Positions 38,982 to 63,331 of a DNA stretch of 64,000 nucleotides are shown piece after piece (the stretch's first letter is position 1; the number at the start of each line of letters is the position of its first letter). The stretch comes from Candidatus Poribacteria bacterium. Lineage in GTDB: Bacteria; Poribacteria; WGA-4E; WGA-3G. The DNA lies in NCBI GenBank assembly GCA_965214095.1, contig OZ243938.1, positions 3,200,001 through 3,264,000 on the forward strand, written 5' to 3'. Made by a program: the position numbers and the translations under genes. The notes under the pieces are model-generated. The model searched no databases and was not told where the DNA came from. It was given only the letters and a program-made list of their open reading frames with translations.

Positions 38982-41912
38982 ATGAAAAATGATGATGTTG
39001 AACTAATTCAAAGTGTTCTTTCTGGCGATGAAGATGCTTTCGCTGAACTTGTGAATAAGCATAAAAAGGCTGTTCACGCACTTGCATGGCGGGTAATTGG
39101 AGACTTCCACATCGCTGAAGACATCACACAGGACACCTTCCTGATAGTGTATCAGAGACTTCACACCTTGAAAGATCCAACCCAGTTTCTTGGATGGCTC
39201 TATGTGATTGCAAGACGCCGATGCTACGCCTGGCTCCGTAAGAAACGGATACGCACACAACCGTTGGAGGACGCAGAAACAACTATGATACAAGAAGATG
39301 TATATTCACGGCATGTAATAGAAGAACGTGCTAACACTGCTGTTGATGCACAACGCGAAGTTGTCAAGAGACTTCTCGCGAAGCTAAAAGAGAGCGAACG
39401 CACGGTGATGACGCTCTACTACCTCGGTGAAATGACAGTCGAAGAGATTAGCAAGTTCTTAGGTGTTTCTGTCGGAACGATAAAAAGTCGGTTACAGCGG
39501 GCACGGAACCGTCTACAGAAGGAGGAAACACTGATTAGAGAAGCACTCGAACATTTCCAACTCTCACCGAACTTAACTGAAAACATCATGCAAGAAGTTT
39601 CACGTCTCAAACCTACGCCTACCGCCAGCAAACCCATAGTGCCGTGGGCAATTGCTGCAACAAGTGCGGTCTTAATTGTGTTGTTACTTGGTATAGGCAG
39701 TCAACACTTAGTCCGTTTTCAGCAACCTTATTCATTAGATGCACAAGCAGAGATGACGGTTGAACTCGTTGATGCTCCTATTATGTTAAATGTTGATAAG
39801 AAACCAGATGTACGACGTGAAATTGGGAATTCAAACGCACTTAATAAAAACGATAGCAACGGTCAGAAACCTGATAACGTTTTGTTAGCCGCCGCGCAGG
39901 TGGAAGGAGAAGACATGTCTAATCAAAAACAACAGTGGATTCATACAAAACCAGTTAGTGGAACTGGAGCCCTGAACCTATGCCCTACCCCTGATGGGGA
40001 TATCTATGTAATAATGAATTATCCTGCTGTCTACAAATTAGCAACAGGTAGAAACACTTGGCAACGTATCCGCATTAACATTAATACCTGGACTGGTAGA
40101 GCCTATATGTCCAAGTGGAACAATACGTTGTACTTTTTGAATAATAATGAACTCTTCACTTCAAAAGATGACGGTGAAAATTGGGATTTACTCTATTCTT
40201 GGAAAGGAGAGAAGTACAAGTTATTAAGTGAAAAATTAGTACTAACGCAACAAGCGTTTTACGTCGCTTTTGAGAATGGTGTTCTCCAGTCTCAGGACAA
40301 AGGCAAAACATGGAAAAACATAAGCGATGGGTGGATGGGAAGAATGAGAACATTAGTTGAGATCCAGAATACGATTTTCGCGGGAACTGACAATGGTTGT
40401 TCTCGTTACAGTGGTGGCGAATGGAAACGCTTGAAATTCCCAGTCACGATTGGCAGGATTATTTCAACTGCAGCAACCAACAGGAAACTCTATATTGCTG
40501 CATGGTTGGATAAGAAAGTTTCTCAAGAATTGAAACGTACTTGGGGAATATTTCGATCAACGGATCTCGGAGATTCATGGCAAGATATTACGCCTACAAA
40601 TGCTTGGAATTTAAACGCAATTCCGCCTGGTATCAGACTCATTGCTTTAGGAGAAACAGTCATAGCAATGGAACGTGGTTTGATCCGTTCAATTGACGGT
40701 GGAGATACCTGGCTGAGTCCACAAGCACATAACACATCACCTACAATGGAAAGTGGTTTGGCAGTTGCGATAGTGAAAAACGATACTATTTATATCAGTA
40801 GTGAAAACGGACTCCATTATTCCACTGATCTTGGTGAATCATGGCACAAGATGAATATCAAGCAAAAGGGAGGAAATATATATGATCTAATCGCTTTTAA
40901 AAAGGTTGATAAAAATCATAGCACACCTGCTGTTCTCTATGCAAGAATAGAATTAGCACTAGGACACGGAGATGAGATTCAAAAAACCGATGACGGCGGC
41001 AATTCTTGGAAACCCGTTCAAATAGCAATACCAATGACAGAACCTAACAGAGAAACCCCACCGCATATCACCCAAATTATTAAAGACGGTGATGTTCTTT
41101 ATGCAAAGGGTAAGGAAAATATATTTCCCAGTTATTATACACGTATTTACCGCGTATCCAGTGATGGTAGGACGCTTGTGCAGATTCAGGGTATGCCAGT
41201 TCTTAATTCGTATGAGTTAGATGAACAAGTATCCGAAGGAAGTGCTCTTGGTGCAACTCAGTTTCTTAAACTGTTTACACAACCAAAAAGTAAACTTAGA
41301 AGTGACCTTACAGAAAGAGGGTTACACGGAGCGTTTGCTGTTACGGAAGACACGTTCTACGTTGAATATAACTATAAGCTCTTCCGGTGGAAGTTTGGTG
41401 ATACAGAATTCTATGACACTGAACAGGAAGAAACCATAGAATTGACTGAGGACATAATAAAGAAAGATCTTAAACTGGCTGTTTCAGGGAATACTGTCTA
41501 TGTTGGAAAACGGGATGGCAATCTCGTTGTATCGCTTAATAGAGGTAACAATTGGGTTGATCTCACCCCTACTCTACCTTTCACAGTTAGAGCTTTCAAT
41601 GACATCGTGGTTGTCGGTAACACAGTATATGTAGCAACAGATGCAGGCGTCGCTGCATCAGATCAAGGTAATAATTGGGGTGTTGTTACTGATTTAGAGA
41701 CTACTAATCTCGTCATGGAACATTTGACTGTTGATGGCACAAAACTCTATGGCGTTACCAAAGATACTGGCATCTATCGATTGGAAAATGACACATGGAA
41801 TCAGATTGTGTCAGAGATACCAGAGAGAATAACATCTCTCGCTGTTGATGGAAATACCTTATATGTGGGAACAGATGGTCAAGGTATGCTTCACCTAAAT
41901 CTAAATAAATAA
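38982..41912 (+). CDS. Array gene 4: ECF sigma + TM + Asp-box/BNR propeller
   Basis: sigma4 'LGVSVGTIKSRLQRAR'; TM 'PWAIAATSAVLIVLLLGIG'; repeated SxDxGxxW. Confidence 0.9.
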   Translation: MKNDDVELIQSVLSGDEDAFAELVNKHKKAVHALAWRVIGDFHIAEDITQDTFLIVYQRLHTLKDPTQFLGWLYVIARRRCYAWLRKKRIRTQPLEDAETTMIQEDVYSRHVIEERANTAVDAQREVVKRLLAKLKESERTVMTLYYLGEMTVEEISKFLGVSVGTIKSRLQRARNRLQKEETLIREALEHFQLSPNLTENIMQEVSRLKPTPTASKPIVPWAIAATSAVLIVLLLGIGSQHLVRFQQPYSLDAQAEMTVELVDAPIMLNVDKKPDVRREIGNSNALNKNDSNGQKPDNVLLAAAQVEGEDMSNQKQQWIHTKPVSGTGALNLCPTPDGDIYVIMNYPAVYKLATGRNTWQRIRININTWTGRAYMSKWNNTLYFLNNNELFTSKDDGENWDLLYSWKGEKYKLLSEKLVLTQQAFYVAFENGVLQSQDKGKTWKNISDGWMGRMRTLVEIQNTIFAGTDNGCSRYSGGEWKRLKFPVTIGRIISTAATNRKLYIAAWLDKKVSQELKRTWGIFRSTDLGDSWQDITPTNAWNLNAIPPGIRLIALGETVIAMERGLIRSIDGGDTWLSPQAHNTSPTMESGLAVAIVKNDTIYISSENGLHYSTDLGESWHKMNIKQKGGNIYDLIAFKKVDKNHSTPAVLYARIELALGHGDEIQKTDDGGNSWKPVQIAIPMTEPNRETPPHITQIIKDGDVLYAKGKENIFPSYYTRIYRVSSDGRTLVQIQGMPVLNSYELDEQVSEGSALGATQFLKLFTQPKSKLRSDLTERGLHGAFAVTEDTFYVEYNYKLFRWKFGDTEFYDTEQEETIELTEDIIKKDLKLAVSGNTVYVGKRDGNLVVSLNRGNNWVDLTPTLPFTVRAFNDIVVVGNTVYVATDAGVAASDQGNNWGVVTDLETTNLVMEHLTVDGTKLYGVTKDTGIYRLENDTWNQIVSEIPERITSLAVDGNTLYVGTDGQGMLHLNLNK

Positions 41913-41999
41913 GTAGATTTGCAATAAACGAATACATGCTCTTGTCGAAGTGCTTTGTAAGTGCACCATAAGCGTCAATTTAGCGTCCTTTCAGGAACG

Positions 42000-42094
42000 G
42001 TAGGTTCGGTTTCCTAACCGAACCGGATCCTATGCGAAAACTTTATATCAACGGGATCGGCACAAATCTGGTGCGGTTAGGAAACCGCACCTAC
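42000..42094. repeat. REP doublet, family 1
   Basis: GTAGGTTCGGTTTCCTAACCGAACC ... GGTGCGGTTAGGAAACCGCACCTAC. Confidence 0.85.
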
Positions 42095-42175
42095 CGTCTT
42101 GGGAAATTCAGCATTTGCAAAAGAAAGGACAAGAAAAACCGAAAACTAAATAGTCCTGCTACGACTAACTCATCC

Positions 42176-42203
42176 TTGACAAACCCACCTGATTTGGTAG
42201 AAT
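42176..42203 (+). promoter_or_regulatory. Sigma70-type promoter (identical copies at 45578, 48954, 52539)
   Basis: TTGACA-N16-TAGAAT with extended TG. Confidence 0.65.
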
Positions 42204-42250
42204 AGTATCTCACTGTTTCCGACCAACCCATCTGCAAACCTGCAGAATTT

Positions 42251-42279
42251 GGCAACCTTTTTACATATATCCTGCGTCA
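42251..42279 (+). promoter_or_regulatory. ECF-type promoter of gene 5 (GGCAACC-N17-CGTCA)
   Basis: Recurrent motif. Confidence 0.7.
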
Positions 42280-42327
42280 CTATAGTATGATGTGTGATGA
42301 ATCAACTTTCACTAATGGAGTCACCAG

Positions 42328-45315
42328 ATGATAAACGAAGATGTTGCCATTATTCAACGCATTCTCGCTGATGATGAAACTGCTTTCGCAGAGCTTGTAA
42401 AAAAATATCAGAAGGCAGTGCATACGCTTGCTTGGCGAAAGATTGGGGATTTTCACATTGCAGAGGACATCACCCAAGATGCCTTCCTGAAAGTGTATCA
42501 GAAGCTCCACACCCTGCAAGACCCAAACCAGTTTGCTGGGTGGTTATATGTAATCACAACAAATCTATGCTCCACATGGCTTCGCAAGAAACGGATACAA
42601 ACCAAACGTTTGGAGGACGCAGAGACAATGATGGCACAGAGAGATGCATATTCTGAACATGTTACAGGAGATAGCACCAAAACTGCTGTTGAAACACAAC
42701 GGGAAGTGGTCAAGAAATTGCTTGCGAAGTTGAAAGAGAGTGAGCGGACGGTGATGTCACTTCATTATCTTGGTGAGATGAAGATTGAAGAGATAAGCAG
42801 ATTTCTGGGGGTATCCACAAGCACAATCAAAAGCCGTCTTAGGCGTGCACGGAACCGTTTACAAAAGGAGGAAACAATGATAAAAGAAGCACTCGAACAT
42901 TTCCAACTCTCACCAAACTTAACTGAAAACATCATGCAAGAAGTTTCACGTCTCAAACCTACGCCTACTGCTAGCAAACCACTTGTACCGTGGGCAATTG
43001 CTGCAACAAGTGCAGTCTTAATTGTGTTGTTACTTGGCATAGGGAGTCAACAATTATTCCGTTTTCAGCAACCTTTTTCATTAGATGCACAAGCAGAGAT
43101 GACGGTTGAACTCGTTGACACACCTATTGTGCTAAATTTAGATGCGAAACCGGATGTCCGAAATCAACTGGGCAGTATAAATCCTGCTGGTGATAGTGAG
43201 AATGAAGGTCAGAAACCAGATGAAGTCTTGTTGGCTGCCGCAGAAACAGATGAAGATGACAAGGTGTCTAATCCTAAACAGCAGTGGATTCAGGCAAAAC
43301 CTACTACGGGAACTATGGTAGAAGGTTTGCTTGCAACCTCTGAGGATGTTCTTTACACGCTCGCTCAAGGACACATATACAAATTACAAGACGATAGCAC
43401 GGGGTGGCAACATGTTAGTGATGTTAGCTCAATAACTGATGTGCCGCTTATTGAAATTCCTATGGCAGAACGGAACAATACCTTCTATATGGTTCCCTCC
43501 AATAAACTCTATGCTTCAATAGATGACTGCAGGACATGGGATTTAGTTCATCAATTTCCTGATGAATATTATTCTCCAACTCAATTACTTCTCACTGAAA
43601 AAACTATTTACATCATTTTTGAACATCCAAACGGTGCATTCCGTTCTGAGGATAAAGGAAAAACATGGAAGGATATGAGTGGTGAATTTCCCAATGAACC
43701 CGATGCTATTGTAACGGTCCAAGACACGGTATTTGCTTTAGCAGGTAATATCTATCGCTGGAACTCTGGTGGTTGGCAACGTTTAGCAGAATTCCCAGTA
43801 CCTCAAGCAAAGTCATGTTATTCCATTACAGTAACTAAAGATAAGTTGTATGCCTTCACAATCAATGCCCATTTTGATCCTGATAATGCAGCAAAGGGGC
43901 AACGAGGCTGGTGGATATTTCGCTCAACTGACTTAGGGAATTCGTGGGAAAACATAACTCCAACACAGGTGTGGAAATCAAGAGAAGGATGGAGAATCAA
44001 TATAAGACTTGTTGCTGCTGGTGAAACACTTCTTGCACTGGAACAAGGATTGCTACGTTCTACTGATGGTGGAGATACATGGATGCCTCTAGAAAAAATT
44101 GGTAAATCTCTTGAAATGTTTTCTAATTCTCCAATTGCGGTGTTGAATGAAAGCATTTTCTATTTTGGCAGCCCGTATTCCGGACTCCAACGTTCTATTG
44201 ATGAAGGTAAATCATGGGAAGTGGTCAATGTTACTTCAAATACAAGGGGTATTGGCAACCTAATTGTAGATAGAGTAAATGAAAAAGGACAAAATACACT
44301 TCCAATTATTTATGGGAACGTTGGAGATATGGTAAAAACTATTGACAAGGGTAAGTCTTGGAAAACTATTCCAATCGATCTGTCAATGGATCCACCGAAT
44401 GATGAAGATTTCTTGGACATTACACAGATAATTGAATCGAAAGGTATTATCTATGCTAAAGGTACAAATTTTCTTATTGGTGCTTATGACCAAGGAGTAA
44501 CACATATATTTCACATGTCTACAGAAAGCAATATGTTAGTACCGATTCAAGATCTACCAATCATTGACCCGTGGTTAGGGAGCCAGCTATCTCAAAGAAA
44601 ACATGACTTGTCAGATAAGGCGTTTGTTGAACAGTTGCAAGAAAGATTTGCGGGAGCAACACAGTTCTTTATACAATTGGTTCAAATGGCACCTATACAA
44701 CAAGAAAACCTTCGACGAATTGGTTTGCGTGGCGCGTTTGCGGTCAGTGATGACACAGTTTATATGGAATACAACTTTAAACTATTCCGTTGGAAACAAG
44801 GTGAAAAAGAATGGTATGACACTGGACTGGAAGAGACCGTGGAATTAAAGATAGATGTAGCAAGAATACCTCTGAAACTCGCTACTTCAGGTGATACTGT
44901 TTATGTAGGAAAACGCGATGGACACCTCGCCGTTTCGTTTGATAGTGGAAATAATTGGATTGATCTTACTCCAGCGTTACCTTTTGTAGTTAAAGTATTC
45001 AAAGATATTGTGGTTGCTGGGTCTACCGTTTATGTAGCAACAAACGCAGGTATCATTACATCAGATGATGGAAGGAATTGGCGTACTATCACCGATGCAG
45101 AAGGAACGAATCTCAGTATGGACATACTCACTGCTGATGGCACGATGCTTTATGGTGTTATCAAGGATACTGGCATCTATCGCTTAGAAAATGGCACATG
45201 GAATCAGATTGTCTCAGAAATGCCAGAAAACATAATATCTCTTGCTGTTGACGGAAATACTTTATATGTGGGAACACAAGATCAAGGTATGCTTCACTTT
45301 AATCTTAGTAAATAA
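42328..45315 (+). CDS. Array gene 5: ECF sigma + TM + Asp-box propeller
   Basis: sigma4 'LGVSTSTIKSRLRRAR'; Asp-boxes; SD GGAG. Confidence 0.9.
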   Translation: MINEDVAIIQRILADDETAFAELVKKYQKAVHTLAWRKIGDFHIAEDITQDAFLKVYQKLHTLQDPNQFAGWLYVITTNLCSTWLRKKRIQTKRLEDAETMMAQRDAYSEHVTGDSTKTAVETQREVVKKLLAKLKESERTVMSLHYLGEMKIEEISRFLGVSTSTIKSRLRRARNRLQKEETMIKEALEHFQLSPNLTENIMQEVSRLKPTPTASKPLVPWAIAATSAVLIVLLLGIGSQQLFRFQQPFSLDAQAEMTVELVDTPIVLNLDAKPDVRNQLGSINPAGDSENEGQKPDEVLLAAAETDEDDKVSNPKQQWIQAKPTTGTMVEGLLATSEDVLYTLAQGHIYKLQDDSTGWQHVSDVSSITDVPLIEIPMAERNNTFYMVPSNKLYASIDDCRTWDLVHQFPDEYYSPTQLLLTEKTIYIIFEHPNGAFRSEDKGKTWKDMSGEFPNEPDAIVTVQDTVFALAGNIYRWNSGGWQRLAEFPVPQAKSCYSITVTKDKLYAFTINAHFDPDNAAKGQRGWWIFRSTDLGNSWENITPTQVWKSREGWRINIRLVAAGETLLALEQGLLRSTDGGDTWMPLEKIGKSLEMFSNSPIAVLNESIFYFGSPYSGLQRSIDEGKSWEVVNVTSNTRGIGNLIVDRVNEKGQNTLPIIYGNVGDMVKTIDKGKSWKTIPIDLSMDPPNDEDFLDITQIIESKGIIYAKGTNFLIGAYDQGVTHIFHMSTESNMLVPIQDLPIIDPWLGSQLSQRKHDLSDKAFVEQLQERFAGATQFFIQLVQMAPIQQENLRRIGLRGAFAVSDDTVYMEYNFKLFRWKQGEKEWYDTGLEETVELKIDVARIPLKLATSGDTVYVGKRDGHLAVSFDSGNNWIDLTPALPFVVKVFKDIVVAGSTVYVATNAGIITSDDGRNWRTITDAEGTNLSMDILTADGTMLYGVIKDTGIYRLENGTWNQIVSEMPENIISLAVDGNTLYVGTQDQGMLHFNLSK

Positions 45316-45403
45316 GTAGATTTGACAATAAACTAATACATGGTCTTGTCGGAGTGCTTTGTAAGTGCACCATAAGCGTCAATTTAGCGTCCTTTCAGGA
45401 ACG

Positions 45404-45498
45404 GTAGGTGCGGTTTCCTAACCGCACCGAATTTGTGCTAAAACCTTTCACAGTCAGTATTCTTGTAGGTTCCAGTGCGGTTAGGAAACCGCACCTAC
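45404..45498. repeat. REP doublet, family 1; spacer and right flank are an inverted homologue of the 14361 MITE
   Basis: CCGAATTTGTGCTAAAACCTTTCA.AGTCAGTATTCTTGTAGGTTCC and CTCTATTCTGGAAAATACTTAAAACTAAATA match the 14361-14520 region in reverse. Confidence 0.8.
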
Positions 45499-45652
45499 CG
45501 TCTTGGGGTTAACTTTCAGTAATCTCTATTCTGGAAAATACTTAAAACTAAATAACCCTACTACGACTAACTCATCCTTGACAAACCCACCTGATTTGGT
45601 AGAATAGTATCTCACTGTTTCCGACCAACCAATCTGTAAACCTGAAAAATTA

Positions 45653-45681
45653 TGCAACCGTTCTCCTCCTAACTTGCGTCA
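45653..45681 (+). promoter_or_regulatory. ECF-type promoter of gene 6 (TGCAACC-N17-CGTCA)
   Basis: Recurrent motif. Confidence 0.7.
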
Positions 45682-45730
45682 TTTAGTTTGATACGTGATT
45701 AATCAGACTATTGATTTCTGGAGACACCTT

Positions 45731-48694: not shown

Positions 48695-48777
48695 GTATGC
48701 AATAAACTGATACATGCTCTTGTCGAAGTGCTTTGTAAGTGCACCATAAGCGTCAATTTAGCGTCCTTTCAGGAACG

Positions 48778-48872
48778 GTAGGTTCGGTTTCCTAACCGAA
48801 CCGGATCCTATGCGAAAACTTTATATCAACGGGATCGGCACAAATCTGGTGCGGTTAGGAAACCGCACCTAC
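48778..48872. repeat. REP doublet, family 1
   Basis: Same as 42000-42094. Confidence 0.85.
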
Positions 48873-49028
48873 CGTCTTGGGAAATTCAGCATTTGCAAAA
48901 GAAAGGACAAGAAAAACCGAAAACTAAATAGTCCTGCTACGACTAACTCATCCTTGACAAACCCACCTGATTTGGTAGAATAGTATCTCACTGTTTCCGA
49001 CCAACCCATTTGCAAACCTGCAGAATTT

Positions 49029-49057
49029 GGTAACCTTTTTGCATATATCTTGCGTCA
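49029..49057 (+). promoter_or_regulatory. ECF-type promoter of gene 7 (GGTAACC-N17-CGTCA)
   Basis: Recurrent motif. Confidence 0.7.
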
Positions 49058-49105
49058 CTATAGTATGATGTGTGATGAATCAACTTTCACTAATGGAGTC
49101 ACCAG

Positions 49106-52613: not shown

Positions 52614-52642
52614 TGCACCAGTTTTATCCGTAAGTCGCGTCA
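52614..52642 (+). promoter_or_regulatory. ECF-type promoter of gene 8 (TGCACCA-N17-CGTCA)
   Basis: Recurrent motif. Confidence 0.7.
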
Positions 52643-55600: not shown

Positions 55601-55672
55601 GCTGTTGATGGAAGGACTTTATATCTTGGTACACAATTTGAAGGTATGCTTCGTTTTACGCTTGAAGAATAA
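52667..55672 (+). CDS. Array gene 8: ECF sigma + TM + Asp-box propeller
   Basis: sigma4 'LGVSANTIRSRLRRAQ'; SD GGAGGT. Confidence 0.9.
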   Translation: MQKNDVELIHQILDGDDTAFTELVTKYQKSVHALVWKKIGDFHIAEEITQDTFLKAYQKLSSLKSPQRFASWLYVIASRRCLAWQRRKRILTKSLEETNSAQIEKATYSQYVVNENMRITAETQRDVVKKLLAKLPESERTIITLHYFSEMSSSEIGAFLGVSANTIRSRLRRAQQRLQKEETMIREALDHFKLSPNFTENIMQEISRLKPTPSASKPLVPWTVAAASAVLIVLMLGIGSQNLVRFQQPYTLDAQAETTVELVDTPIVLNLDTKPDVRNQLGNSNALGISENDGQKPNEVLLAAAETEDEDKVSTSKQQWIQSEPIIGSAVENLFASDKGELYTVLDAHIYKWQDNNTGWQQLSGDIRDYHDRLNETTIITDVPIAKWDNILYIALENLLLASRDDGKTWKTVHEWQPDYRHPRELVLTEQAFWVSHNRGVFRSEDKGNTWQEVDVELIQGPIFLIAIQNTVFAGSYTGLYRWNTSSWERVELPVAEALLVYKAAAAKERLYVLAFLGYDFYDDKAIREGRQRTWWIFRSDDLGNSWKDITPTNAWPLKAEAPEIQLVAAGETIMLMGKGIVRSIDGGDTWLPFQRPNTLPTNIKYYWPSVALNEHVFYAIGRGLHRTTDGGKTWSKVNITPNRRWHGIQNLLVHKPKERIENSQPTLYGTAGIGIVKTTDEGKSWKQIQVEIPLDTSVREDQPSIIQMVKSDGVLYAKGSSDYPIGELRFYRVSEDDNTLVSIQGIPTFDSRELKEYLRQSQNPSLEELQKRFSGATQFFKWLLQSTPHQQDMLIRDGFRGQFTVSSNTYYSEYNYKLFRWEPGDTEWKDIGQEETSSKTWGHLKLAVSGDTVYVGKRDGHLHVSYDKGDNWIDLTPALPFPVRFFKKIMTAGSTVYVATDAGILTSDDGRNWRVVADTEGRNLIMEELAVDGTTLYGITQDTGIYRLKSDSDTWKQIIAEIPESAKVNLTSNGTSLAVDGRTLYLGTQFEGMLRFTLEE

Positions 55673-55736
55673 TCCAACTACCGTAGTGGCACCGAATGGA
55701 TCTCATCGTTCCTCTTTCCTCTTTTTTGAAAAAACT

Positions 55737-55764
55737 TGAGACTATTTCACCTCATACCGAGTCA
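55737..55764 (+). promoter_or_regulatory. Variant ECF-type promoter of gene 9 (TGAGACT-N16-AGTCA)
   Basis: Same position and spacing as the other motifs; repeated before gene 10. Confidence 0.6.
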
Positions 55765-55812
55765 TTAATATAGTGATGTCAATTGATGAATTTCCCTTAC
55801 CAGAGGTCTTCG

Positions 55813-58800
55813 ATGAAAAATGCTGATGTCGAACTCATCCAACGTGTCCTTGATGGCGATGATACTGCGTTCTCAGAACTAGTTAACAAATATCGCAAGT
55901 CTGTACACGCGCTTGCATGGCGGAAGGTTCAAGACTTCCATATCGCTGAAGATATCACACAGGAAACATTCCTAAAGGCATACAAAGGAATACCAACGTT
56001 GAAGGAACCGCAATCTTTTGCAGGTTGGCTATATGTTATTGCAACAAATCACTGTAATACTTACCTTGGTAAGAAACGTTTGCCGACTCAGTCTTTGGAA
56101 GATACCGATAATGAAGAGTTGGAAAAAGCAACCTATTCCAGCTATGTCAGTGCGGAAAACGAGCGGGTATCAGTAGAAACGCAGCGTGAAGTCGTCAAGA
56201 AGTTGCTTGCTAAGTTGCAGGAGAGTGACCGAACGGTCATCACACTCTATTACCTCGGGGGAATGACGTATGAAGAGATAAGCAAGTTTTTAGGTGTATC
56301 GGTAAGTGCAATCAAGAATCGACTCTACCGAGCGCGCCAGTTTCTAAAGAAGGAGGAACCTATGATAAGAGAAGCTTTAGAGAATTACCAAATCACTCCA
56401 AATCTCACTGAAAACATCATGCAAGAAATATCTCGTCTCAGACCTACACCTTCCACCAGCAAACCCTTAGTGCCGTGGGCAGTTGCTGCTGCAAGTGCAA
56501 TCTTAATAGTGTTGATGCTTGGCATAGGTAGTCAGAACTTAGTTCGTTTTCAGCAACCTTATTCATTAGATGCACAAGCAGAGATGACGGTGGAACTCGT
56601 TGACACACCTATTGTGCTAAATATAGATACGAAACCAGATGTCCGAAATCAATTGGGCAATACAAATGCATTGGGTATAAGTGAGAGTGAAGGTCAGAAA
56701 CCAGATGAAGTCCTGTTGGCTGCCGCAGAAACCGATGAAGAAGACAAGGTATCCGTCCCTAAACAGCAGTGGATTCAGTCTGAACCTATCAAAGGAAGTG
56801 CTGTGAAAAATTTATTTTCTACCGATGCAGGAGAACTCTACACTGTTCTTGATGCACACATATACAAATGGCAAGACAATAAAACGGGATGGCAACAGTT
56901 GAGTGGTGACATCAGAGATTATCATGAAAAGTTGGATGAAACTATACTCATAACGAATGTTCCTATAGCAAAATGGGACAATACCCTTTATATTGCTTTG
57001 AGTAATTTATTTTTGGCTTCAAAAGATGATGGTAAAACATGGGATATAGTTCATTCATGGTCACCTGACAATTTTGGACCGCGTAACTTGGTGTTGACTG
57101 AACAAGCGTTTTGGGTGAGTCTTAACAGCGGTGTTTTCCGTTCTGAAGATAAAGGGAATACATGGCAGGAGGTAGATGTAGAATTATTTAGGGGTTCCAT
57201 CTTCTTTAAAGCCATACAAAACACAGTATTTGCTGGATCATACACAGGGTTGTATCGTTGGAACACCGGCAGCTGGGAACGTGTAAAATTACCGGTAGCT
57301 GAGGCATTAATAGTCCACGAAGTCGCAACCACTAAAGATCGATTGTATGTAATGGCATCATTAGGTCATGAATTTTATGATGATAAAGCAGTCCGGGAGG
57401 GACGACAACGGACTTGGTGGATATTCCGCTCAGATGATTTGGGAGATTCGTGGAAAGATATTACACCGACAAATGCTTGGCCCCTAAAAGCCAAGTCACC
57501 TGATATCCTACTTGCTGCTGCGGGTGCAACCATTATGTTGATGGGAAGGGGTATTGTGCGTTCTATCGATGGAGGAGATACTTGGTTGCCCTTACAAACA
57601 CCACCCACGCTATCTACAGTCAGGTTTTCTAAGCCTTCTGTGGCATTAAATGAACGCGTGTTCTATGCCATAGGAAGGGGACTACACCGTACTACTGATG
57701 GAGGCAAATCATGGAGCAAGATAAATATCACGCCGAATAGGAGACGGAGTGGCATACGCAACTTACTCGTGGATAAGCAGAATGAAAAAACGCAAAACAG
57801 CCAGCCGACTCTTTATGGGACAGCAGGAATTGGCATAGTAAAAACTACTGATGAGGGTAAATCTTGGAAGCATATTCAGGTAGAAATACCTATTGATATT
57901 CCTGTAAGAGAGGACCAACCCTGGATAACGCAGATAGCCAGTTCTGACGGTGTTATCTATGCCAAAAGTAGTAGTCATTACCCATTCGGAGAATTGCGAT
58001 ATTATCGCGTATCTGAGGATGGGAACAAGTTAGTTCCTATTCAAGACATGCCTACATTCGACTCAAGAGAATTAAAAGAGTATTTACGCAAATCTCAAAA
58101 TCCCTCTTTAGAAGAGCTACAAAAGAGGTTTCTGGGAGCAACACTATTCTTTAAATCGTTGATCCAAACAGATCCAGTCCAGTTACCTCAACGAACAAAG
58201 GATGCACTGATCCAAGGAGGGAATAATGGAACGTTTGCTGTTAGTGGTAATACGTTCTATATGGAATACAACCTAAAACTATTCCGATGGGAACCTGGTG
58301 ATACAGAATGGCAAGACATCGGACAAGAAGATACTTATCCAAGGACAGCGGAATATCTCCAACTGGCAGTGTCTGGGGACACCGTCTATGTAGGAAGAAG
58401 GAATGGACATCTTGTCGTGTCGTTCAATAAAGGAAATAACTGGATTGATCTTACACCGGGACTGCCGTTTCAGGTAAAATCTTATAAAGATATAGTTGTT
58501 GACGGAACCACGGCATGTGTAGCAACTAACGCAGGCACCCTTATATCGGACGATGGGAAAAATTGGCGAGTCGTCACAGATGCAGATGGAACTCATCTCA
58601 TTATGGAAGAATTGGCTGTTGATGACACAACGTTTTATGGAATCACTAAAGACACAGGTATCTATCGTTTAAAGAGTGATAGTGACACTTGGGAACAGAT
58701 TATCACAGAAATACCTGAAAGTGCAAAAGTGAATATAGCCGATAACGGAGCTTCTCTGGCTGTTAAGGGCAGCACCTTATACTTAGGTACACGAAGAAAC

Positions 58801-58830
58801 GGCATGTTTCATTTTACTCTTGAAGAATAA
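55813..58830 (+). CDS. Array gene 9: ECF sigma + TM + Asp-box propeller (1005 aa)
   Basis: sigma4 'LGVSVSAIKNRLYRAR'; propeller very similar to gene 8; SD GAGGT. Confidence 0.9.
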   Translation: MKNADVELIQRVLDGDDTAFSELVNKYRKSVHALAWRKVQDFHIAEDITQETFLKAYKGIPTLKEPQSFAGWLYVIATNHCNTYLGKKRLPTQSLEDTDNEELEKATYSSYVSAENERVSVETQREVVKKLLAKLQESDRTVITLYYLGGMTYEEISKFLGVSVSAIKNRLYRARQFLKKEEPMIREALENYQITPNLTENIMQEISRLRPTPSTSKPLVPWAVAAASAILIVLMLGIGSQNLVRFQQPYSLDAQAEMTVELVDTPIVLNIDTKPDVRNQLGNTNALGISESEGQKPDEVLLAAAETDEEDKVSVPKQQWIQSEPIKGSAVKNLFSTDAGELYTVLDAHIYKWQDNKTGWQQLSGDIRDYHEKLDETILITNVPIAKWDNTLYIALSNLFLASKDDGKTWDIVHSWSPDNFGPRNLVLTEQAFWVSLNSGVFRSEDKGNTWQEVDVELFRGSIFFKAIQNTVFAGSYTGLYRWNTGSWERVKLPVAEALIVHEVATTKDRLYVMASLGHEFYDDKAVREGRQRTWWIFRSDDLGDSWKDITPTNAWPLKAKSPDILLAAAGATIMLMGRGIVRSIDGGDTWLPLQTPPTLSTVRFSKPSVALNERVFYAIGRGLHRTTDGGKSWSKINITPNRRRSGIRNLLVDKQNEKTQNSQPTLYGTAGIGIVKTTDEGKSWKHIQVEIPIDIPVREDQPWITQIASSDGVIYAKSSSHYPFGELRYYRVSEDGNKLVPIQDMPTFDSRELKEYLRKSQNPSLEELQKRFLGATLFFKSLIQTDPVQLPQRTKDALIQGGNNGTFAVSGNTFYMEYNLKLFRWEPGDTEWQDIGQEDTYPRTAEYLQLAVSGDTVYVGRRNGHLVVSFNKGNNWIDLTPGLPFQVKSYKDIVVDGTTACVATNAGTLISDDGKNWRVVTDADGTHLIMEELAVDDTTFYGITKDTGIYRLKSDSDTWEQIITEIPESAKVNIADNGASLAVKGSTLYLGTRRNGMFHFTLEE

Positions 58831-59115: not shown

Positions 59116-60105
59116 ATGAAACGCACCTATATGTTGTTGGAAATGACACTCCTGTTCAGTTTGTTTCTGCTTACCGTAAATGCTTGGGGAGCTCAGTATA
59201 TTTCTTTCAGTTCTAACCGTACAGGGCAAAGCGATATCTACATCATTGATACAAACGGCAAGAATCTACGCAACCTAACAAACCATCCCGCAGAGGACAC
59301 TGGTGCTACGTGGGCACCGGATGGGCGTTCTTTTGCTTTTGCGTCGAACCGTGATGGAAATTATGAAATCTATATTAAGAAATTCAATGAAGCTCAGGCG
59401 CGTCGGTTGACACACCGTCCGGAAAACGATTTTGATCCTGTCTGGTCAGCTTTTTCTCCTGCCTGGTCACCTGATGGAGATTGGATTGCTTTTGTAGCCA
59501 AGAGAACAGGGGCATCTCATATCTACAAAATAGATATCAACGGTGAGAATCTACAGAGACTGACTAACCAAGGAGGTAGCCCAAACTGGTCTCCAGATGG
59601 AAAATCAATTGCTTTCGATGTTTTTGGGAGCGGTATCTATGTGATGGACGCAGATGGAAAAAATCCTAGACAGATTAAAATCCAGGTAAATATAATCGCT
59701 TTTATTTTCGATCCTGCTTGGTCGCCTGATGGAAAACAGATTGCTTGTGTTCTCGTTAATGAGGGGCAGGATATCTACATCATGGATACAGATGGACAAA
59801 ACGCCCGACGCATTTCACCTCTTGGGACTTGGAGCGTCAGGCCTGCGTGGTCTCCTGATGGTAAGTGGATTGCCTACCAGGCCGACGATGCAGAAAATGC
59901 GAATCCTCAGGGAAACCCGAATGCGGAGCGACACATTTTTATCGTTTCTGTTGAGGGGGATGAGCCACGGCAAATCACACAAGATCCTGTGCGAAATTCT
60001 TCTCCCGCCTGGATCCCCGGAAGTTTTTTCTCCGTTTCTCCGACTGTGAACACCCAGACAACCCTCTGGGGTCGGTTGAAACAAGCTGAACGTATGACGC
60101 AATAA
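59116..60105 (+). CDS. Secreted TolB-like (PD40) beta-propeller
   Basis: Signal peptide, repeated 'PAWSPDG', C-terminal 'SVSP...TTLWGRLKQ'; SD AGGAGG. Confidence 0.85.
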   Translation: MKRTYMLLEMTLLFSLFLLTVNAWGAQYISFSSNRTGQSDIYIIDTNGKNLRNLTNHPAEDTGATWAPDGRSFAFASNRDGNYEIYIKKFNEAQARRLTHRPENDFDPVWSAFSPAWSPDGDWIAFVAKRTGASHIYKIDINGENLQRLTNQGGSPNWSPDGKSIAFDVFGSGIYVMDADGKNPRQIKIQVNIIAFIFDPAWSPDGKQIACVLVNEGQDIYIMDTDGQNARRISPLGTWSVRPAWSPDGKWIAYQADDAENANPQGNPNAERHIFIVSVEGDEPRQITQDPVRNSSPAWIPGSFFSVSPTVNTQTTLWGRLKQAERMTQ

Positions 60106-60227
60106 AGATAATCACGGTTCACCATGAGGAGTATACCTAACAATGAGCAAAACCGGTTCATTCAGAAAATGGAACATCACTGTTCTTAGTATAAGTCTTC
60201 TGCTCTTTCCTCTTTTTTGAAAAAACT

Positions 60228-60255
60228 TGAGACTATTTCGCCTCATACCGAGTCA
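60228..60255 (+). promoter_or_regulatory. Variant ECF-type promoter of gene 10 (TGAGACT-N16-AGTCA)
   Basis: Near-identical to the gene 9 motif. Confidence 0.6.
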
Positions 60256-60301
60256 CTATATGCTGATGTGAAATGATGAACTCCCTTTCCAGAGGTTTTC
60301 A

Positions 60302-63300
60302 ATGAAAAATGCTGATGTTGAACTCATCCAACGTGTCCTTGATGGTGATGATACTGCGTTTACCGAACTGGTTAAGAAATACCAGAAATCTGTTCACGCG
60401 CTTGCATGGCGGAAGGTTCAAGACTTCCACATTGCAGAGGATATCACACAAGAAACATTCCTAAAGGTATATCGGAATCTGTCAACACTGAAGGAACCGC
60501 AATCTTTTGCAAGTTGGTTGTATGTCATAGCAACAAACCACTGCAAGACGTGGCTTAGTAAGAAGCAAGTGTGGACACAATCGTTGGATAACTTCAATAG
60601 CGCAGAATTGGAAAAAGCAACCTATTCCAACTATGTCAGTGCGGAAAACGAACGGGTATCAGTAGAAGCACAGCGAGAAGTCGTCAAGAAGTTGCTTGCA
60701 AAACTACAGGAGAGTGATCGCACGGTCATCACACTCTACTACCTCGGGGGAATGACGTATGAAGAAATCAGCAGATTCTTAGGTGTATCGGTCAGTGCGA
60801 TCAAGAATCGACTCTACCGAGCGCGCCAGTTTCTAAAGAAGGAGGAACCTATGATAAGAGAAGCTTTAGAGAATTACCAAATCACTCCAAATCTCACTGA
60901 AAACATCATGCAAGAAATATCTCGTCTCAGACCTACGCCTACTGCCAGCAAACCGCTTGTACCGTGGGCAGTTGCTGCTGCAAGTGCTATTTTAATAGTG
61001 TTGATGCTTGGATTAAGCAGCCAACAATTACTCCGTTTTCAGAAACCTTTTTCATTAGACGCACAAGCAGAGATGACCGTTGAACTTGTTGACACACCAA
61101 TTGTGCTAAATATAGACACGGTCCCAGATGTGAGAAATTTACTGGGTAATACAAATGCGTTGGGTATAAGTGAAAATGAAGGTCAGAAACCAGATGAAGT
61201 CCTGTTGGCTGCTGCAGAAACCGAAGATGAGGACAAGGTATCCACTCTCAAACAGCAGTGGATTCAGTCTGAACCCATTAAAGGTAGTCCTGTTGATAGT
61301 CTAAGAGTTACCACTGAAGGAGATCTGTATGTTCTCCTACGTAGTCTAGGAAACCCTAAGATCCTGAAGTTAACTTCGGATGGAAACACTTGGCAATCTT
61401 TTGAAGGTAATCCACCAGAAACTGCCTGGAGCTTTAACGGACCTATACTAAAGTGGAATGACACGTTTTACACTATACTGTATAATGAACTCCTTGCAAC
61501 AAAAGATGAAGGTAAAACATGGGATTTACTATATTCGTGGCAAGATGCAAATGGTGCGACCGAATTTGTACAGATAGAACAAGCACTTTACATCGCATTT
61601 AGAAATGGAATCTTTAAATCAGAAGATTCTGGCAAGACATGGAAATCAATACACGATGAGAAAATAAAGCATATTGAATCATTGTTCAAAATCCAAGACA
61701 CACTATTTGTCCGAACTTACAGAGAACTCTATCGTTTGGAAGATGATAAATGGAAACGCATTGAATTTCCTGCCCCAGTCAGGCGGATCATTTCAATTGC
61801 CGGTTCTGAAGATAAACTTTATGTTGTGATATTTTTCAATTGGGAAGAAGCAAATGTAGACAGAGAAAAAATGGAACAGGGACTGGTGCGTGGATGGTGG
61901 ATATACCGTTCAACTGACCTTGGCAATTCATGGACAGATATAACACCGACAAACGCTTGGAACATAAATGGATGGCCCCCCAATCCAAAGATGATTGCAA
62001 CTGGTGATACACTTCTCGTAATGGAACGAGGTATGGTACGTTCCACCGATGGTGGGGATACATGGATGCCGCCACAACAACCAGACACATCACCGTTAAT
62101 GAGCAGTGAAAACCATGCTGTTGCGTTAGATGAAAACACCTTTTATATCAGTAACAGAGACGGACTCCATCGTTCCATTGATGGCGGTAAATCTTGGGAA
62201 ATGGTAAAAATTCCTCAGGATAAGACGAGGAGAGTAGTTTGGAACCTAATCAAAGATATTGGGACTAGAAAAAGGCAGAACGAGCAGCATACTCTATACG
62301 GAATAGTTTCAGTTGGCAAAATAGCAAAAACTACGGATAATGGTAAGTCTTGGAATGACGTTCAAGTTGATTTTCCAATGTCAAAACAACTGACTGAACC
62401 CTTACCAACATTTATACAGATTAATCAATCTGAAAATGGAGTCTATGCAAAGGGTGGTTCAATTGGTGGAGGAAAAATAAGACACTACAAAGTATCAAAA
62501 AATGGATACACATTAGAACCTATACAAGACTTGCCTACCTTCGATTCGTTTGAATTAAGAATGCATTTGTATCAAACACAAGATCTTTCTATTGAAGTGT
62601 TAAAAGAAGATTTTACTGGGGCGACTCAATTCTTCAAACAGATGCTCCAGTTAACCCCACAAGAAAGGGGTAAACTTGAAGGACTTGGATTACTTGGACC
62701 GTTTGCTGTCAGTGGTGACACATTCTATTCGGAATATAACTTTAAACTCTTGAGATGGGAACCCGGCTATACTGAATGGTACGACACTGGACAAGAGGAA
62801 ACCGCAGAAGTATCTCTGAAGACGGGCATTTATAGAGCCAACGCTATCATTCCTGAACTTGCTGCTTTAGGTGACACTGTCTATTACGGAAAACGGGATG
62901 GACATCTCGTTGTATCGTTTGATAGAGGTAATAATTGGGTAGATATCACTCCGGGTTTGCCGTTTAAAGTTAGAACTTTCTATGATATAGTATTTGCTGG
63001 ATCTACAGTGTATGTGGCAACAGACGCAGGTATCATTACATCAGATGATGGGAGGACTTGGCAGGTCGTCAATGATTCGGATGGAACAAATCTTATCATG
63101 GAGCACTTGGCTACCGATGGAACAACACTCTACGGAATTACCAAAATGACACGTGTATTTCAAAAAAATGCTGTATTTCGTTTGGAAAACGGCACTTGGA
63201 ATCAAATTGTTACCAGTATACCTGCTACATTTGAAATGACTGATATCATAACATCTCTCGCTGTTGATGGTAATACACTATATATAAGTACTGGAAAAAA

Positions 63301-63331
63301 CGGAATGCTTTACTATAGCCTTGAAGAGTAA
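60302..63331 (+). CDS. Array gene 10: ECF sigma + TM + Asp-box propeller
   Basis: Sigma class of gene 9; propeller unlike gene 9. Confidence 0.9.
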   Translation: MKNADVELIQRVLDGDDTAFTELVKKYQKSVHALAWRKVQDFHIAEDITQETFLKVYRNLSTLKEPQSFASWLYVIATNHCKTWLSKKQVWTQSLDNFNSAELEKATYSNYVSAENERVSVEAQREVVKKLLAKLQESDRTVITLYYLGGMTYEEISRFLGVSVSAIKNRLYRARQFLKKEEPMIREALENYQITPNLTENIMQEISRLRPTPTASKPLVPWAVAAASAILIVLMLGLSSQQLLRFQKPFSLDAQAEMTVELVDTPIVLNIDTVPDVRNLLGNTNALGISENEGQKPDEVLLAAAETEDEDKVSTLKQQWIQSEPIKGSPVDSLRVTTEGDLYVLLRSLGNPKILKLTSDGNTWQSFEGNPPETAWSFNGPILKWNDTFYTILYNELLATKDEGKTWDLLYSWQDANGATEFVQIEQALYIAFRNGIFKSEDSGKTWKSIHDEKIKHIESLFKIQDTLFVRTYRELYRLEDDKWKRIEFPAPVRRIISIAGSEDKLYVVIFFNWEEANVDREKMEQGLVRGWWIYRSTDLGNSWTDITPTNAWNINGWPPNPKMIATGDTLLVMERGMVRSTDGGDTWMPPQQPDTSPLMSSENHAVALDENTFYISNRDGLHRSIDGGKSWEMVKIPQDKTRRVVWNLIKDIGTRKRQNEQHTLYGIVSVGKIAKTTDNGKSWNDVQVDFPMSKQLTEPLPTFIQINQSENGVYAKGGSIGGGKIRHYKVSKNGYTLEPIQDLPTFDSFELRMHLYQTQDLSIEVLKEDFTGATQFFKQMLQLTPQERGKLEGLGLLGPFAVSGDTFYSEYNFKLLRWEPGYTEWYDTGQEETAEVSLKTGIYRANAIIPELAALGDTVYYGKRDGHLVVSFDRGNNWVDITPGLPFKVRTFYDIVFAGSTVYVATDAGIITSDDGRTWQVVNDSDGTNLIMEHLATDGTTLYGITKMTRVFQKNAVFRLENGTWNQIVTSIPATFEMTDIITSLAVDGNTLYISTGKNGMLYYSLEE

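Follow-up and report, generated by a model that had tools for sequence, protein, structure and literature searches.

The question raised by this locus is whether the regulatory and sensory parts of a signalling protein descend together when its gene is one of several tandem paralogues. Ten such genes (G1 to G10) lie on one strand (+) at 29046-63331 of the 64-kb stretch of DNA analysed here (the window), and in nine of them an ECF sigma factor (sigma2 plus sigma4) is followed by one transmembrane (TM) helix, a linker of ~100 aa and a propeller sensor of ~650 aa. The evidence supports different histories for the sigma modules, with their promoters, and for the sensor modules, and exchanges between the two resolve in the conserved TM-linker.

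Pfam places Sigma70_r2, Sigma70_r4_2 and Sigma70_ECF at the N-terminus of nine of the ten genes and finds no sigma domain in G2. The array sigmas score 97-102 bits with TIGR02937 (NCBIfam; cut-off 42.9) and, with sigma2 and sigma4 only and with matches to ECF models, they are ECF (group 4) sigma-70 factors by domain content. A single hydrophobic segment (called as a hydrophobic 19-mer region, KD ≥ 1.6) is present between sigma4 and the sensor in every window gene. The sensors of G1-G3 are WD40, and those of G4-G10 are BNR/Asp-box, Sortilin-Vps10-like (Pfam). G1 probably starts at the ATG at 29046 (the mechanical ORF opens at TTG 28977). In G2, which has a deletion of the proximal linker, homology to the other paralogues starts at FQFSPNL, immediately 5′ of its ATG. 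Neither sigma nor hinge is present in the part of G11 inside the window; its WD40 module opens with the NLPEGAK.RLGKG motif, as in G1-G3. Elsewhere in the window, the sole gene resembling a transposase, a TnpB, lies at 7792-9375, 20 kb from the array, and the sole protease gene is that of a peptidase S58 at 27813-28742.

Table 1. Features of the array and its surroundings (positions within the window)
Feature	Position	Strand	Remarks
G1	29046-32252	+	ECF sigma, TM, linker, WD40 propellers
G2	32687-35017	+	Paralogue without sigma; TM and WD40
G3	35227-38526	+	ECF sigma with SANT sigma4, TM, linker, WD40 propellers
G4	38982-41912	+	ECF sigma, TM, linker, Asp-box twin propeller
G5	42328-45315	+	ECF sigma, TM, linker, Asp-box twin propeller
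G5 hinge	aa 189-322, nt 42892-43293	+	FQLSPNL...KQQWIQ
G6	45731-48694	+	Architecture as G5; conserved start ATG 45731; ORF open from GTG 45695
G7	49106-52126	+	Head ~97% identical to G5 head, propeller different
G8	52667-55672	+	SANT-type sigma, -35 element GCACCA, propeller like that of G9 (~79% aa identity)
G9	55813-58830	+	Mosaic, G10-like promoter and sigma with G8-like propeller; alternative start 55783
Gene X	59116-60105	+	Secreted PD40/TolB-like propeller protein between G9 and G10
G10	60302-63331	+	G9-like promoter and sigma, propeller its own
G11	63533-64000	+	Signal peptide and WD40 module; extends past window end
Shared tract, copy 1	41920-43300	+	G5 spacer, both promoters, sigma, TM, linker
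Shared tract, copy 2	48698-50080	+	Equivalent parts of G7
G9 head tract	55725-56820	+	~87% identical to G10 head 60216-61310
G9 TM-linker and propeller tract	56417-58114	+	~85% identical to G8 53271-54970
Spacer element	41997-42097		~100 nt, terminal inverted repeats
Spacer element, further copies	32375-32473, 45401-45501, 48775-48875, 52208-52441		Terminal inverted repeats
ECF-type promoter of G1	28968-28994	+	GCACCC..GCGTCA
ECF-type promoter of G3	35139-35166	+
ECF-type promoter of G4	38791-38818	+
ECF-type promoter of G5	42252-42279	+
ECF-type promoter of G6	45654-45681	+
ECF-type promoter of G7	49030-49057	+
ECF-type promoter of G8	52615-52642	+
ECF-type promoter of G9	55738-55764	+
ECF-type promoter of G10	60229-60255	+
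Sigma70-type promoter-like site before G5	42176-42203	+	TTGACA-16-TAGAAT with TG
Same sigma70-type site, further copies	45578-45605, 48954-48981, 52539-52566		TTGACA-16-TAGAAT

An initial annotation had pointed to G5 and G7 as near-identical from promoter to linker, with unlike propellers and with identity ending at KQQWIQ, and so it proves. The shared block of 1.38 kb (~97% nt) begins directly after the stop codon of the preceding gene, and the spacer within it is 100% identical across ~250 nt. Identity is 97% for sigma (aa and nt), 95-96% for TM and proximal linker and 93-94% for the distal linker; at KQQWIQ nt identity falls to ~50%, and the propellers have 32-36% aa identity. The max-chi2 breakpoint at 43294/50084 was matched by none of 2000 permutations, and dS is 0.11 for sigma, 0.17 for the TM-linker and 1.48 for the propeller. 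A sister grouping of G5 and G7 is not rejected by the propeller alignment (AU p = 0.29), so this case rests on dS and the sharp drop in identity, not on topology.

For G9 the topology is itself in conflict. Two further pairings of the initial annotation hold here, namely that G8 and G9 are alike in propeller and unlike in sigma and promoter, while G9 and G10 have the latter two in common and not the propeller. G8 and G9 are 78-79% identical in propeller aa (83-85% nt) and 62% in sigma aa, with high identity beginning near 53271/56417, and their promoters are GCACCA..GCGTCA and GAGACT..GAGTCA. G9 and G10, with nearly identical promoters, have 87% aa identity in sigma and 37-48% in propeller. 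The dS between G8 and G9 is 1.82 for sigma, 0.45 for the TM-linker and 0.40 for the propeller. In the triplet test G9 is G10-like at 151 of 181 informative sites to the left of 56441 and G8-like at 599 of 760 sites to the right of it, a breakpoint equalled in none of 2000 permutations. Separate trees of the two modules are not congruent. The sigma tree gives (G5,G7) and (G9,G10) 100% support each, and the propeller tree gives (G8,G9) 100%; the sigma alignment rejects a (G8,G9) clade (AU p = 0.0007) and the propeller alignment a (G9,G10) clade (AU p = 1e-34).

Discordance of this kind is family-wide. The set used, 61 loci chosen by similarity to G5 plus the window, holds 160 full-length unique genes. 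A phylum is given for 61 related loci and is in every case Candidatus Poribacteria; at least 586 genomic stretches with members of the family were found in that phylum, and the hinge is common to at least 983 clusters (at 90% identity). Between pairs of genes, identity in sigma does not correlate with identity in sensor (Spearman rho 0.04 over 12720 pairs, which, like the triplets below, are not independent of one another). Sigma is at least 90% identical in 134 pairs, 35 of which have no detectable sensor similarity. On the sigma tree at least 29 changes of sensor class are needed, where the minimum possible is 3 and shuffled labels give 50.5 +/- 2.9, and the sensor class differs in 12 of 53 cherries. 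The array of a close relative, L003, has other sigma-sensor pairings: a G9-type sigma (95.7% nt) is attached to another propeller (42% aa), and a propeller orthologous to that of G10 (92% aa) has a sigma 86% identical in nt to that of G10 and 96% to that of its own neighbour.

The breakpoints cluster. Triplet tests in the window place them at aa columns 210-222 and 335-346, the two borders of the TM-linker, where the initial annotation had put a recombination hinge; among family triplets the hinge zone holds 31 of 39 strong parent-switch breakpoints (chi2 ≥ 40, a threshold chosen by the authors), with 5.6 expected. The hinge is also subject to concerted evolution. Among G4-G10 the TM and proximal linker have 79-95% nt identity and dS of 0.32-0.77, with the propeller body at 1.3-2.8. 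The suggestion that the last blades are homogenised as well applies to G5, G6 and G7 (95-98% nt identical, dS 0.12-0.19) but not to G8-G10 (dS 0.66-1.5). Hinge identity is 74.9% within genomes and 65.4% between them (~9 points), whereas for sigma the values are 70.6% and 69.0%. The lowered dS and the within-genome excess of similarity indicate that the hinge itself has been repeatedly converted. Of the 21 pairs of Asp-box genes in the window, 17 have their longest exact nt match within the hinge, where such matches reach 94-137 nt; those between WD40 and Asp-box genes of this window are today only 14-22 nt.

The probable explanation is that homologous recombination or gene conversion of the ordinary kind, acting on an evolutionary timescale and resolved in the hinge, re-pairs sigma plus promoter with sensors that signal in the manner proposed below. 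Paralogues would recombine by gene conversion or unequal crossing-over, with repeated resolution in the ~140-codon TM-linker, the stretch in which nt identity runs longest without interruption. The two units, spacer with promoters and sigma on one side and sensor on the other, would thereby be re-paired over evolutionary time, and conversion, in keeping the hinge alike within a genome, would keep it recombinogenic.

Each swap may carry a regulatory consequence. The ECF-type motif, G[CT]A(A)CC or GAGACT, N15-17, G[CA]GTCA, is present once before each of the nine sigma genes and was found nowhere else in the 64-kb window; over 1.2 Mb of family loci 133 matches are upstream of sigma genes and 9 elsewhere. 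Such an AAC/CGT-type promoter before the gene itself is as in other ECF sigma-70 factors and predicts that the sigmas autoregulate. The -35 and sigma4 classes co-vary, agreeing in 103 of 119 genes by a rule refined on the same data (a value reached by none of 2000 shuffles). As each sigma has its own ECF-type promoter with a -35 matching the sigma4 recognition helix, a swap would link a new sensor to an existing sigma/promoter class. The 'SANT' sigma class, said in the initial annotation to sit on both WD40 and Asp-box sensors, does so: GVSANTI is in sigma4 of G1, G3 and G8, with GCACC as the common -35 element. From the window alone the argument is weak, a G1+G3+G8 sigma clade being neither supported nor rejected (AU p = 0.20), but the family data rescue it, with the xNT sigma4 class on 29 Asp-box sensors, 23 WD40 and 1 other. 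Since sigma4 and -35 co-vary and each class is on several classes of sensor, it is plausible that a swap puts a regulon under a different stimulus. Motif scans found no target promoters besides the genes' own, so 'regulon' is here a term of inference.

Could the clustering of breakpoints be due to selection alone? Crossovers would then occur everywhere, purifying selection would remove those within domains, and the hinge would be no special substrate. Filtering at domain boundaries is expected in any multidomain protein, and swaps between WD40 and Asp-box sensors have occurred family-wide despite the short exact matches between such genes in the window. As the whole account this is improbable in view of the lowered dS of the hinge, its within-genome excess of similarity and its hold on the longest exact matches. 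Filtering and a hinge substrate are compatible, and probably both contribute.

The initial annotation likened the hinge to cassette-shuffling systems, and this part of its reading fares poorly. Programmed or high-frequency shuffling, with junctions re-dealt in the living population as in pilin genes or a shufflon, would fit the within-genome homogenisation with its long exact matches, the existence of copies without sigma or with a variant promoter (G2, G11) and the differences between arrays of close relatives. However, the shared tracts are 3-15% diverged (dS 0.11-0.58), and even the youngest is ~97% identical (dS 0.11), so that the exchanges are old and none is recent. All copies are directly oriented with their own promoters and start codons, which leaves no silent cassettes; the outcome of recombination between direct repeats is loss or duplication of genes, not reversible switching. 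A Pfam search of the other 21 ORFs found no invertase, integrase, recombinase or reverse transcriptase beside the array. Shuffling of this type is accordingly very unlikely.

Vertical divergence after duplication, with fast, positively selected sensors and conserved heads, is scarcely credible. Heads are generally more conserved than sensors, which is why most change points in a pairwise one-breakpoint scan fall, trivially, at the linker/propeller border, and the unrejected propeller sisterhood of G5 and G7 is in keeping with it. Unequal rates do not account for dS values that differ more than 10-fold between modules of one gene pair and in opposite directions in different pairs, nor for the true topological conflict among G8, G9 and G10. 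The triplet tests, immune to rate differences because two parents are compared at the same sites, contradict it. Chimeric joining of paralogues at repeated hinges in a metagenome-derived assembly is no more credible. The hinges are near-identical repeats, of a size at which short-read assemblers can make false joins, the junctions are known from assembled sequence, and those of G7 and G9 were looked for and not found in L003. Yet a mis-join cannot yield heads that are 97% and not 100% identical or propellers that are 85% identical, every shared module is present, diverged, in both copies, the independent L003 assembly repeats the junctions of G5, G8 and G10, the exact G5 protein is on a 5.2-Mb contig, and the discordance recurs in dozens of assemblies, some chromosome-scale.

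Hinge-resolved recombination would act on proteins that combine, in one polypeptide, a cytoplasmic ECF sigma, one TM helix, a juxtamembrane linker and a large extracytoplasmic sensor, either a WD40 propeller set or a GH74-like twin Asp-box propeller. The AF2 model reaches pLDDT 85-95 over the propellers; residues 182-316 are without confident structure and the TM helix is not modelled. The best PDB folds for the Asp-box sensor (Foldseek; E about 1e-19 to 1e-15) are GH74 xyloglucanases and the periplasmic twin propellers of Bacteroides HTCS proteins, the top matches having prob 1.00, target-normalised TM 0.28-0.45 and sequence identity of 9-14%; model and matches agree on two tandem propellers in one domain. 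This twin beta-propeller fold is that of the HTCS sensors BT4663, BT4673 and BT3049, in which it senses glycans in one polypeptide with the transcriptional output, there a kinase, receiver and AraC module and here a sigma factor. By analogy the Asp-box sensors are probably glycan-binding, and the sensors in general would bind glycans or other extracytoplasmic ligands.

Paralogous signalling families such as histidine kinases and chemoreceptors undergo domain shuffling and gene conversion, with exchanges at linker or TM boundaries, and in them too sensor and output modules differ in history. Unlike in these, the exchanged output unit here includes its own cis-acting promoter, and the exchanges take place between tandem genes whose hinge is measurably homogenised.

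Signalling would work by release of the tethered sigma, most likely through regulated proteolysis within the TM and the conserved linker, on the analogy of IutY-type fused sigma/anti-sigma proteins and actinobacterial ECF52 (SCO4117), in which, in the account of them in PMC8999054, regulated proteolysis frees a sigma domain that is likewise joined covalently, across a TM segment, to a sensing part outside the cytoplasm. They carry anti-sigma domains, FecR-like or zinc-finger (PMC8999054), whereas in the array genes Pfam finds none between sigma4 and the TM helix, a gap of only ~35 residues. No site-2 protease or other signalling partner was found by Pfam among the other 21 ORFs of the window.

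The array is read as a new variant of already known ECF sigmas with C-terminal extensions. Closest in outline is ECF57 (original ECF01-Gob), planctomycetal ECF sigmas whose C-terminal extensions are TM and WD40-like (Casas-Pastor et al. 2021, PMC7826278), for which release from the membrane is the proposed activation and members are described as experimentally uncharacterised (PMC7826278, PMC8999054). Both have an ECF core with a membrane-spanning C-terminal extension that may bear WD40-like propellers (PMC7826278), and both occur in multiple copies per genome without a separate anti-sigma factor (PMC7826278, PMC8999054). The entry for ECF57 in PMC7826278 differs in giving a host range of 100% Planctomycetes (here Poribacteria), ~2 TM helices (here one segment), WD40 as the sensor (here mainly the Asp-box twin propeller), no conserved promoter motif (here strongly conserved) and a completely conserved Cys pair in sigma2 and sigma4; in the present family the sigma2 Cys is in 156 of 160 genes and the sigma4 Cys in 33 of 160, G1 and G3 among them. 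The passages on ECF57 in PMC7826278 and PMC8999054 make no mention of tandem arrays or of module reassortment.

It is a speculation, and one rather unlikely to be right, that gene conversion preserves the nt identity of the hinge because this serves as an inbuilt site of recombination. The arrays would then be plug-and-play systems in which Poribacteria populations continually re-pair a few orthogonal sigma/promoter classes (GCACC, GCAAC, GAGAC) with glycan or protein sensors from a large repertoire of fast turnover. Were it right, alternative junctions would segregate in the symbiont populations of today, and exchanges of sensor would follow the glycans of host or diet. In families such as this one, knowing the ECF class of the sigma core is not enough to predict the sensor. 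The family is a natural experiment in which sigma plus promoter and sensor are separable and exchangeable with a defined junction, and its sigma4-to-(-35) specificity code, of at least three classes, is directly testable and useful for the design of orthogonal sigma tools. WD40 and Asp-box proteins of sponge symbionts have hitherto been treated mainly as 'eukaryote-like' repeat proteins, as in the discussion of them in PMC3909097; the present family is a candidate glycan-sensing regulatory layer in these dominant symbionts.

The ten sigma-sensor paralogues of the array, G1 to G10, are modular in architecture and mosaic in history, their breakpoints are centred on a homogenised hinge (the conserved TM-linker between sigma4 and propeller, which ends at the motif KQQWIQ), and sigma4 co-varies with the promoter. 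They lie head to tail, all on the + strand, from 29.0 kb to the window end. Nine of the ten open with an ECF sigma (Pfam Sigma70_r2 and Sigma70_r4_2; the array sigmas score over the cut-off of the NCBIfam model TIGR02937), followed by about 35 residues, a single hydrophobic segment, a linker of about 100 residues and a beta-propeller region of about 650–775 residues. Pfam finds WD40 repeats in the propellers of G1–G3, and BNR/Asp-box and Sortilin-Vps10-like repeats in those of G4–G10. G2 is without sigma, and its homology with the other paralogues runs from FQFSPNL on, just 5′ of its ATG; other Poribacteria genomes also have such sigma-less hinge and propeller genes, some of the WD40 and some of the Asp-box class. 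The last gene, G11, carries the motif that opens the WD40 module, so the sensor module also occurs without sigma and hinge. An AlphaFold2 model of G5 (input, 99 family members) has pLDDT 85–95 over the sensor, which in the PDB best matches GH74 xyloglucanases and the twin propellers on the periplasmic side of hybrid two-component glycan sensors from Bacteroides. Residues 182–316 of full-length G5 (sigma4, TM and linker) have pLDDT below 30, and the model is thus silent on sigma masking by the short cytoplasmic segment.

The initial annotation had read these genes as reassorted sensor and output modules, and separate trees of sigma and propeller do conflict. The sigma tree pairs G5 with G7 and G9 with G10, and the propeller tree pairs G8 with G9, each with 100% support. 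A (G8,G9) clade is rejected by the sigma alignment (AU p = 0.0007) and a (G9,G10) clade by the propeller alignment (AU p = 1e-34). Sisterhood of G5 and G7 is not rejected by the propeller alignment (AU p = 0.29), which leaves no topological argument for that pair, and its case therefore rests on synonymous divergence and an abrupt drop in identity. The block that G5 and G7 have in common is 1.38 kb (41920–43300 and 48698–50080); it starts directly behind the stop codon of the gene before and takes in the entire spacer (about 250 nt at 100% identity), and past KQQWIQ identity falls to about 50% nt and 32–36% aa. G8 and G9 have propellers 78–79% identical in aa and sigmas 62% identical, with the high-identity tract starting near 53271/56417, the sigma4/hinge border. 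G9 and G10 share promoter and sigma (87% aa) and are alike up to KQQWIQ, after which they are 37–48% identical in aa. What had been claimed for these three pairs, including the end of G5/G7 identity at KQQWIQ, is thereby borne out.

For G5–G7, dS is 0.11 in sigma, 0.17 in the TM-linker, 1.48 in the propeller and 0.19 in the last blade; for G8–G9 it is 1.82 in sigma, 0.45 in the TM-linker and 0.40 in the propeller. Such reverse patterns cannot be attained by differing selective constraint on the protein. In triplet tests, which compare two putative parents at identical sites, G9 sides with G10 at 151 of the 181 informative sites before 56441 and with G8 at 599 of the 760 after it, and the G5/G7 break falls at 43294/50084; none of 2000 permutations matched the observed breakpoint value in either case. 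Recombination is thus backed by three independent lines, the trees, synonymous divergence and the triplet tests. Exchange by programmed shuffling is unlikely: the shared tracts are old (dS 0.11 or more), all copies are in direct orientation, each with its own promoters, and no recombinase lies near the array. Misassembly cannot explain the mosaic pattern, as both diverged copies of each shared module are present in the window and the junctions of G5, G8 and G10 are found again in an independent assembly. The donors of G7's and other propellers in these recombination events may lie elsewhere in the genome.

The longest exact nucleotide match (19–137 nt) falls in the hinge for 17 of the 21 Asp-box gene pairs of the window. 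Homogenisation of both TM-linker DNA and last blades, as annotated initially, needs qualifying: TM and proximal linker are 79–95% identical in nt among all Asp-box genes, and the last blade is so (95–98%) only in G5, G6 and G7. With this, and with the reservation on sigma descent discussed below for the 'SANT' class, the five descriptive claims of that annotation hold.

A close relative, L003, was compared over 19 kb of its array. It is 86–94% identical in nt to the window in orthologous parts and has orthologues of G6, G5, G8 and G10. There, a G9-type promoter and sigma (95.7% nt) is fused to another, G7-like propeller (42% aa to G9's), a propeller orthologous to G10's (92% aa) sits on a sigma with 86% nt identity to G10's and 96% to that of the neighbouring gene, and the propeller at the G8 position is nearer G9's (81–82%) than G8's (77–78%). 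The differing pairings imply re-pairing since the split of the two genomes. A G7 orthologue and gene X, a secreted propeller gene, are absent from the corresponding places. [Gene order in L003 is also unlike that of the window, a G5-type gene following G6 where the window has G7, and a 3.6-kb stretch between its G6 and G5 orthologues (L003 2235–5869) has no window counterpart and contains an ORF of 236 aa, which runs on the other strand.]

The hinge is common to at least 983 protein clusters, named, where a name is given, only 'sigma-70 family RNA polymerase sigma factor' or 'hypothetical protein'. At least 586 genomic stretches matched and 61 loci were kept; those with the phylum in the record title are all Candidatus Poribacteria, and a few are titled just 'uncultured bacterium'. 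Together with the window they gave 190 ORFs with sigma and hinge (184 unique, 160 full-length). The full-length genes comprise 99 with Asp-box sensors, 56 with WD40, four of a third class without Pfam match and one of CarboxypepD_reg type, the last two kinds riding on the same sigma-hinge chassis. Further members, P0003, P0006 and P0044, are encoded in the window's genome outside the window.

Over 12720 pairs (non-independent, as are the triplets, and from loci picked by similarity to G5), sensor identity shows no correlation with sigma identity (Spearman 0.04), and sensor similarity is undetectable in 35 of 134 pairs with sigmas at least 90% identical. The sigma tree requires 29 or more changes of sensor class (the minimum possible is 3, and shuffled labels give 50.5 ± 2.9), and 12 of its 53 cherries are discordant in class. 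Hinge identity is 74.9% within genomes versus 65.4% between them, and about 9–10 points higher at matched sigma identity, sigma identity itself being 70.6% within and 69.0% between; this excess within-genome likeness is a signature of concerted evolution. A triplet scan of genomes having three or more paralogues of one class, at a chi2 threshold of our own choosing, found a strong parent switch in 39 of 93 genes, and in 31 of the 39 the breakpoint comes after sigma4 has ended and before the propeller begins, versus 5.6 expected. When 174 same-class pairs from within genomes were scanned pairwise for one breakpoint, 84 of 118 strong change points came out at the linker/propeller border; these were not counted, because heads are more conserved than sensors, and the triplet design was used instead.

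Each of the nine sigma-bearing genes is preceded by a single ECF-type motif (a −35 element, a 15–17 nt spacer and G[CA]GTCA), and neither strand of the 64 kb has the motif at any other place. The promoter of G2 is of sigma70-like type alone, and G5–G8 have a strong sigma70-like site as well, TTGACA-16-TAGAAT, about 75 nt further upstream. No targets of the motif beyond the sigma genes themselves were seen. In the 1.2 Mb of loci, 133 matches are upstream of sigma genes and nine elsewhere. The window sequences suggested three classes of sigma4 motif and −35 element, SANT with GCACC, S-x-[GS]-T with G[CT]AACC and SVSA with GAGACT, and among the 119 family genes in which a promoter candidate was located and sigma4 could be classed the rule fits 103 (shuffled mean 37, maximum 57; none of 2000 shuffles reached 103). 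The 'SANT' motif, which was said to sit on both sensor types, is present in G1, G3 and G8; a clade of these three sigmas is neither backed nor rejected by the window sequences (p-AU 0.20). The family-wide counts uphold the claim: the xNT class, which includes 'SANT', is on 29 Asp-box sensors, 23 WD40 and one other; the x[GS]T class is on 38 Asp-box and nine WD40, and the xxA class on 25 Asp-box, 13 WD40 and three of the third class.

Coordinates of spacer elements, accessory genes and family members lacking a sigma or having unusual sensors
Feature	Location	Strand	Remarks
Spacer elements, ~100 nt	window 32375-32473, 41997-42097, 45401-45501, 48775-48875, 52208-52441		half copy near 28843
TnpB / IS605 OrfB-like gene	window 7792-9375	+	Cas12f1-like TNB, OrfB_IS605, HTH; ~20 kb from array
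Bacterial Ro60 homologue	window 20001-21707	-	TROVE + vWA_Ro60
Two adjacent sulfatase / phosphodiesterase-type genes	window 23296-26056	+	
Gene X, secreted PD40/TolB-like propeller	window 59116-60105		between G9 and G10
G11, signal-peptide WD40 protein	window 63533-64000		runs off window end; mature start INLPEGAKARLGKG, the motif opening the WD40 module of G1-G3
G2-like sigma-less hinge+propeller paralogues	window 32606-35017; L018 978-3425; L025 1311-3809, 3938-6322; L045 10751-13141		also protein P0002
Third sensor class, no Pfam match (4 genes)	L010 3938-6886; L018 10195-13116; L019 6247-9270; L034 11338-14265		
CarboxypepD_reg-like sensor (1 gene)	L058 3988-6597		

The spacer elements follow G1 and G4–G7, with two copies after G7. 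They have terminal inverted repeats of 27–42 nt, each arm itself a hairpin of the GGTTCGGTTTCCTAACCGAACC type, and have a REP- or MITE-like look, or could be terminators. An Rfam scan of the whole window gave no matches, so the hairpins are not a curated RNA family; no Y-RNA-like match accompanies the Ro60 homologue anywhere in the window. The sulfatase / phosphodiesterase-type pair is consistent with sulfated-glycan degradation, and the ECF-type motif is absent upstream of it.

That signalling paralogues shuffle domains is a familiar notion; the novelty lies in the combination of promoter and sigma exchanged as one output unit, a measurably homogenised hinge, tandem arrays and a sigma4/−35 code readable from sequence. 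Neither the Poribacteria family nor sigma/sensor reassortment was found described in the literature listings and abstracts searched. The closest group with a description is ECF57 (originally ECF01-Gob) of Planctomycetes, with an ECF core and a TM-containing C-terminal extension, sometimes WD40, in several copies per genome and, according to that source, without experimental study (PMC7826278). As far as these descriptions go, the Poribacteria genes differ from ECF57 in phylum, in not having its approximately two TM helices and in lacking its fully conserved Cys pair, only 33 of the 160 genes having a sigma4 Cys; their promoters are conserved, whereas those of ECF57 are described as unconserved. 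Sigma release by regulated proteolysis is reviewed for IutY, and is proposed for ECF52 (PMC8999054) and ECF57 (PMC7826278).

RecA-type recombination between tandem paralogues would start or resolve in the hinge, where the long identical runs occur, and selection would then retain those recombinants in which the joined domains are whole. Each sigma would autoregulate from its own promoter and the extracytoplasmic propellers bind ligands, probably glycans for the class resembling GH74 and the hybrid two-component sensors, which would fit a symbiont as the window also encodes sulfatases. By analogy, a signal may release the tethered sigma, most simply if the conserved linker and TM undergo regulated proteolysis, and such common release machinery would explain a hinge common to all sensors. 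Since each sigma4/promoter class is found on several sensor classes, that the swaps rewire stimulus to output is a reasonable inference.
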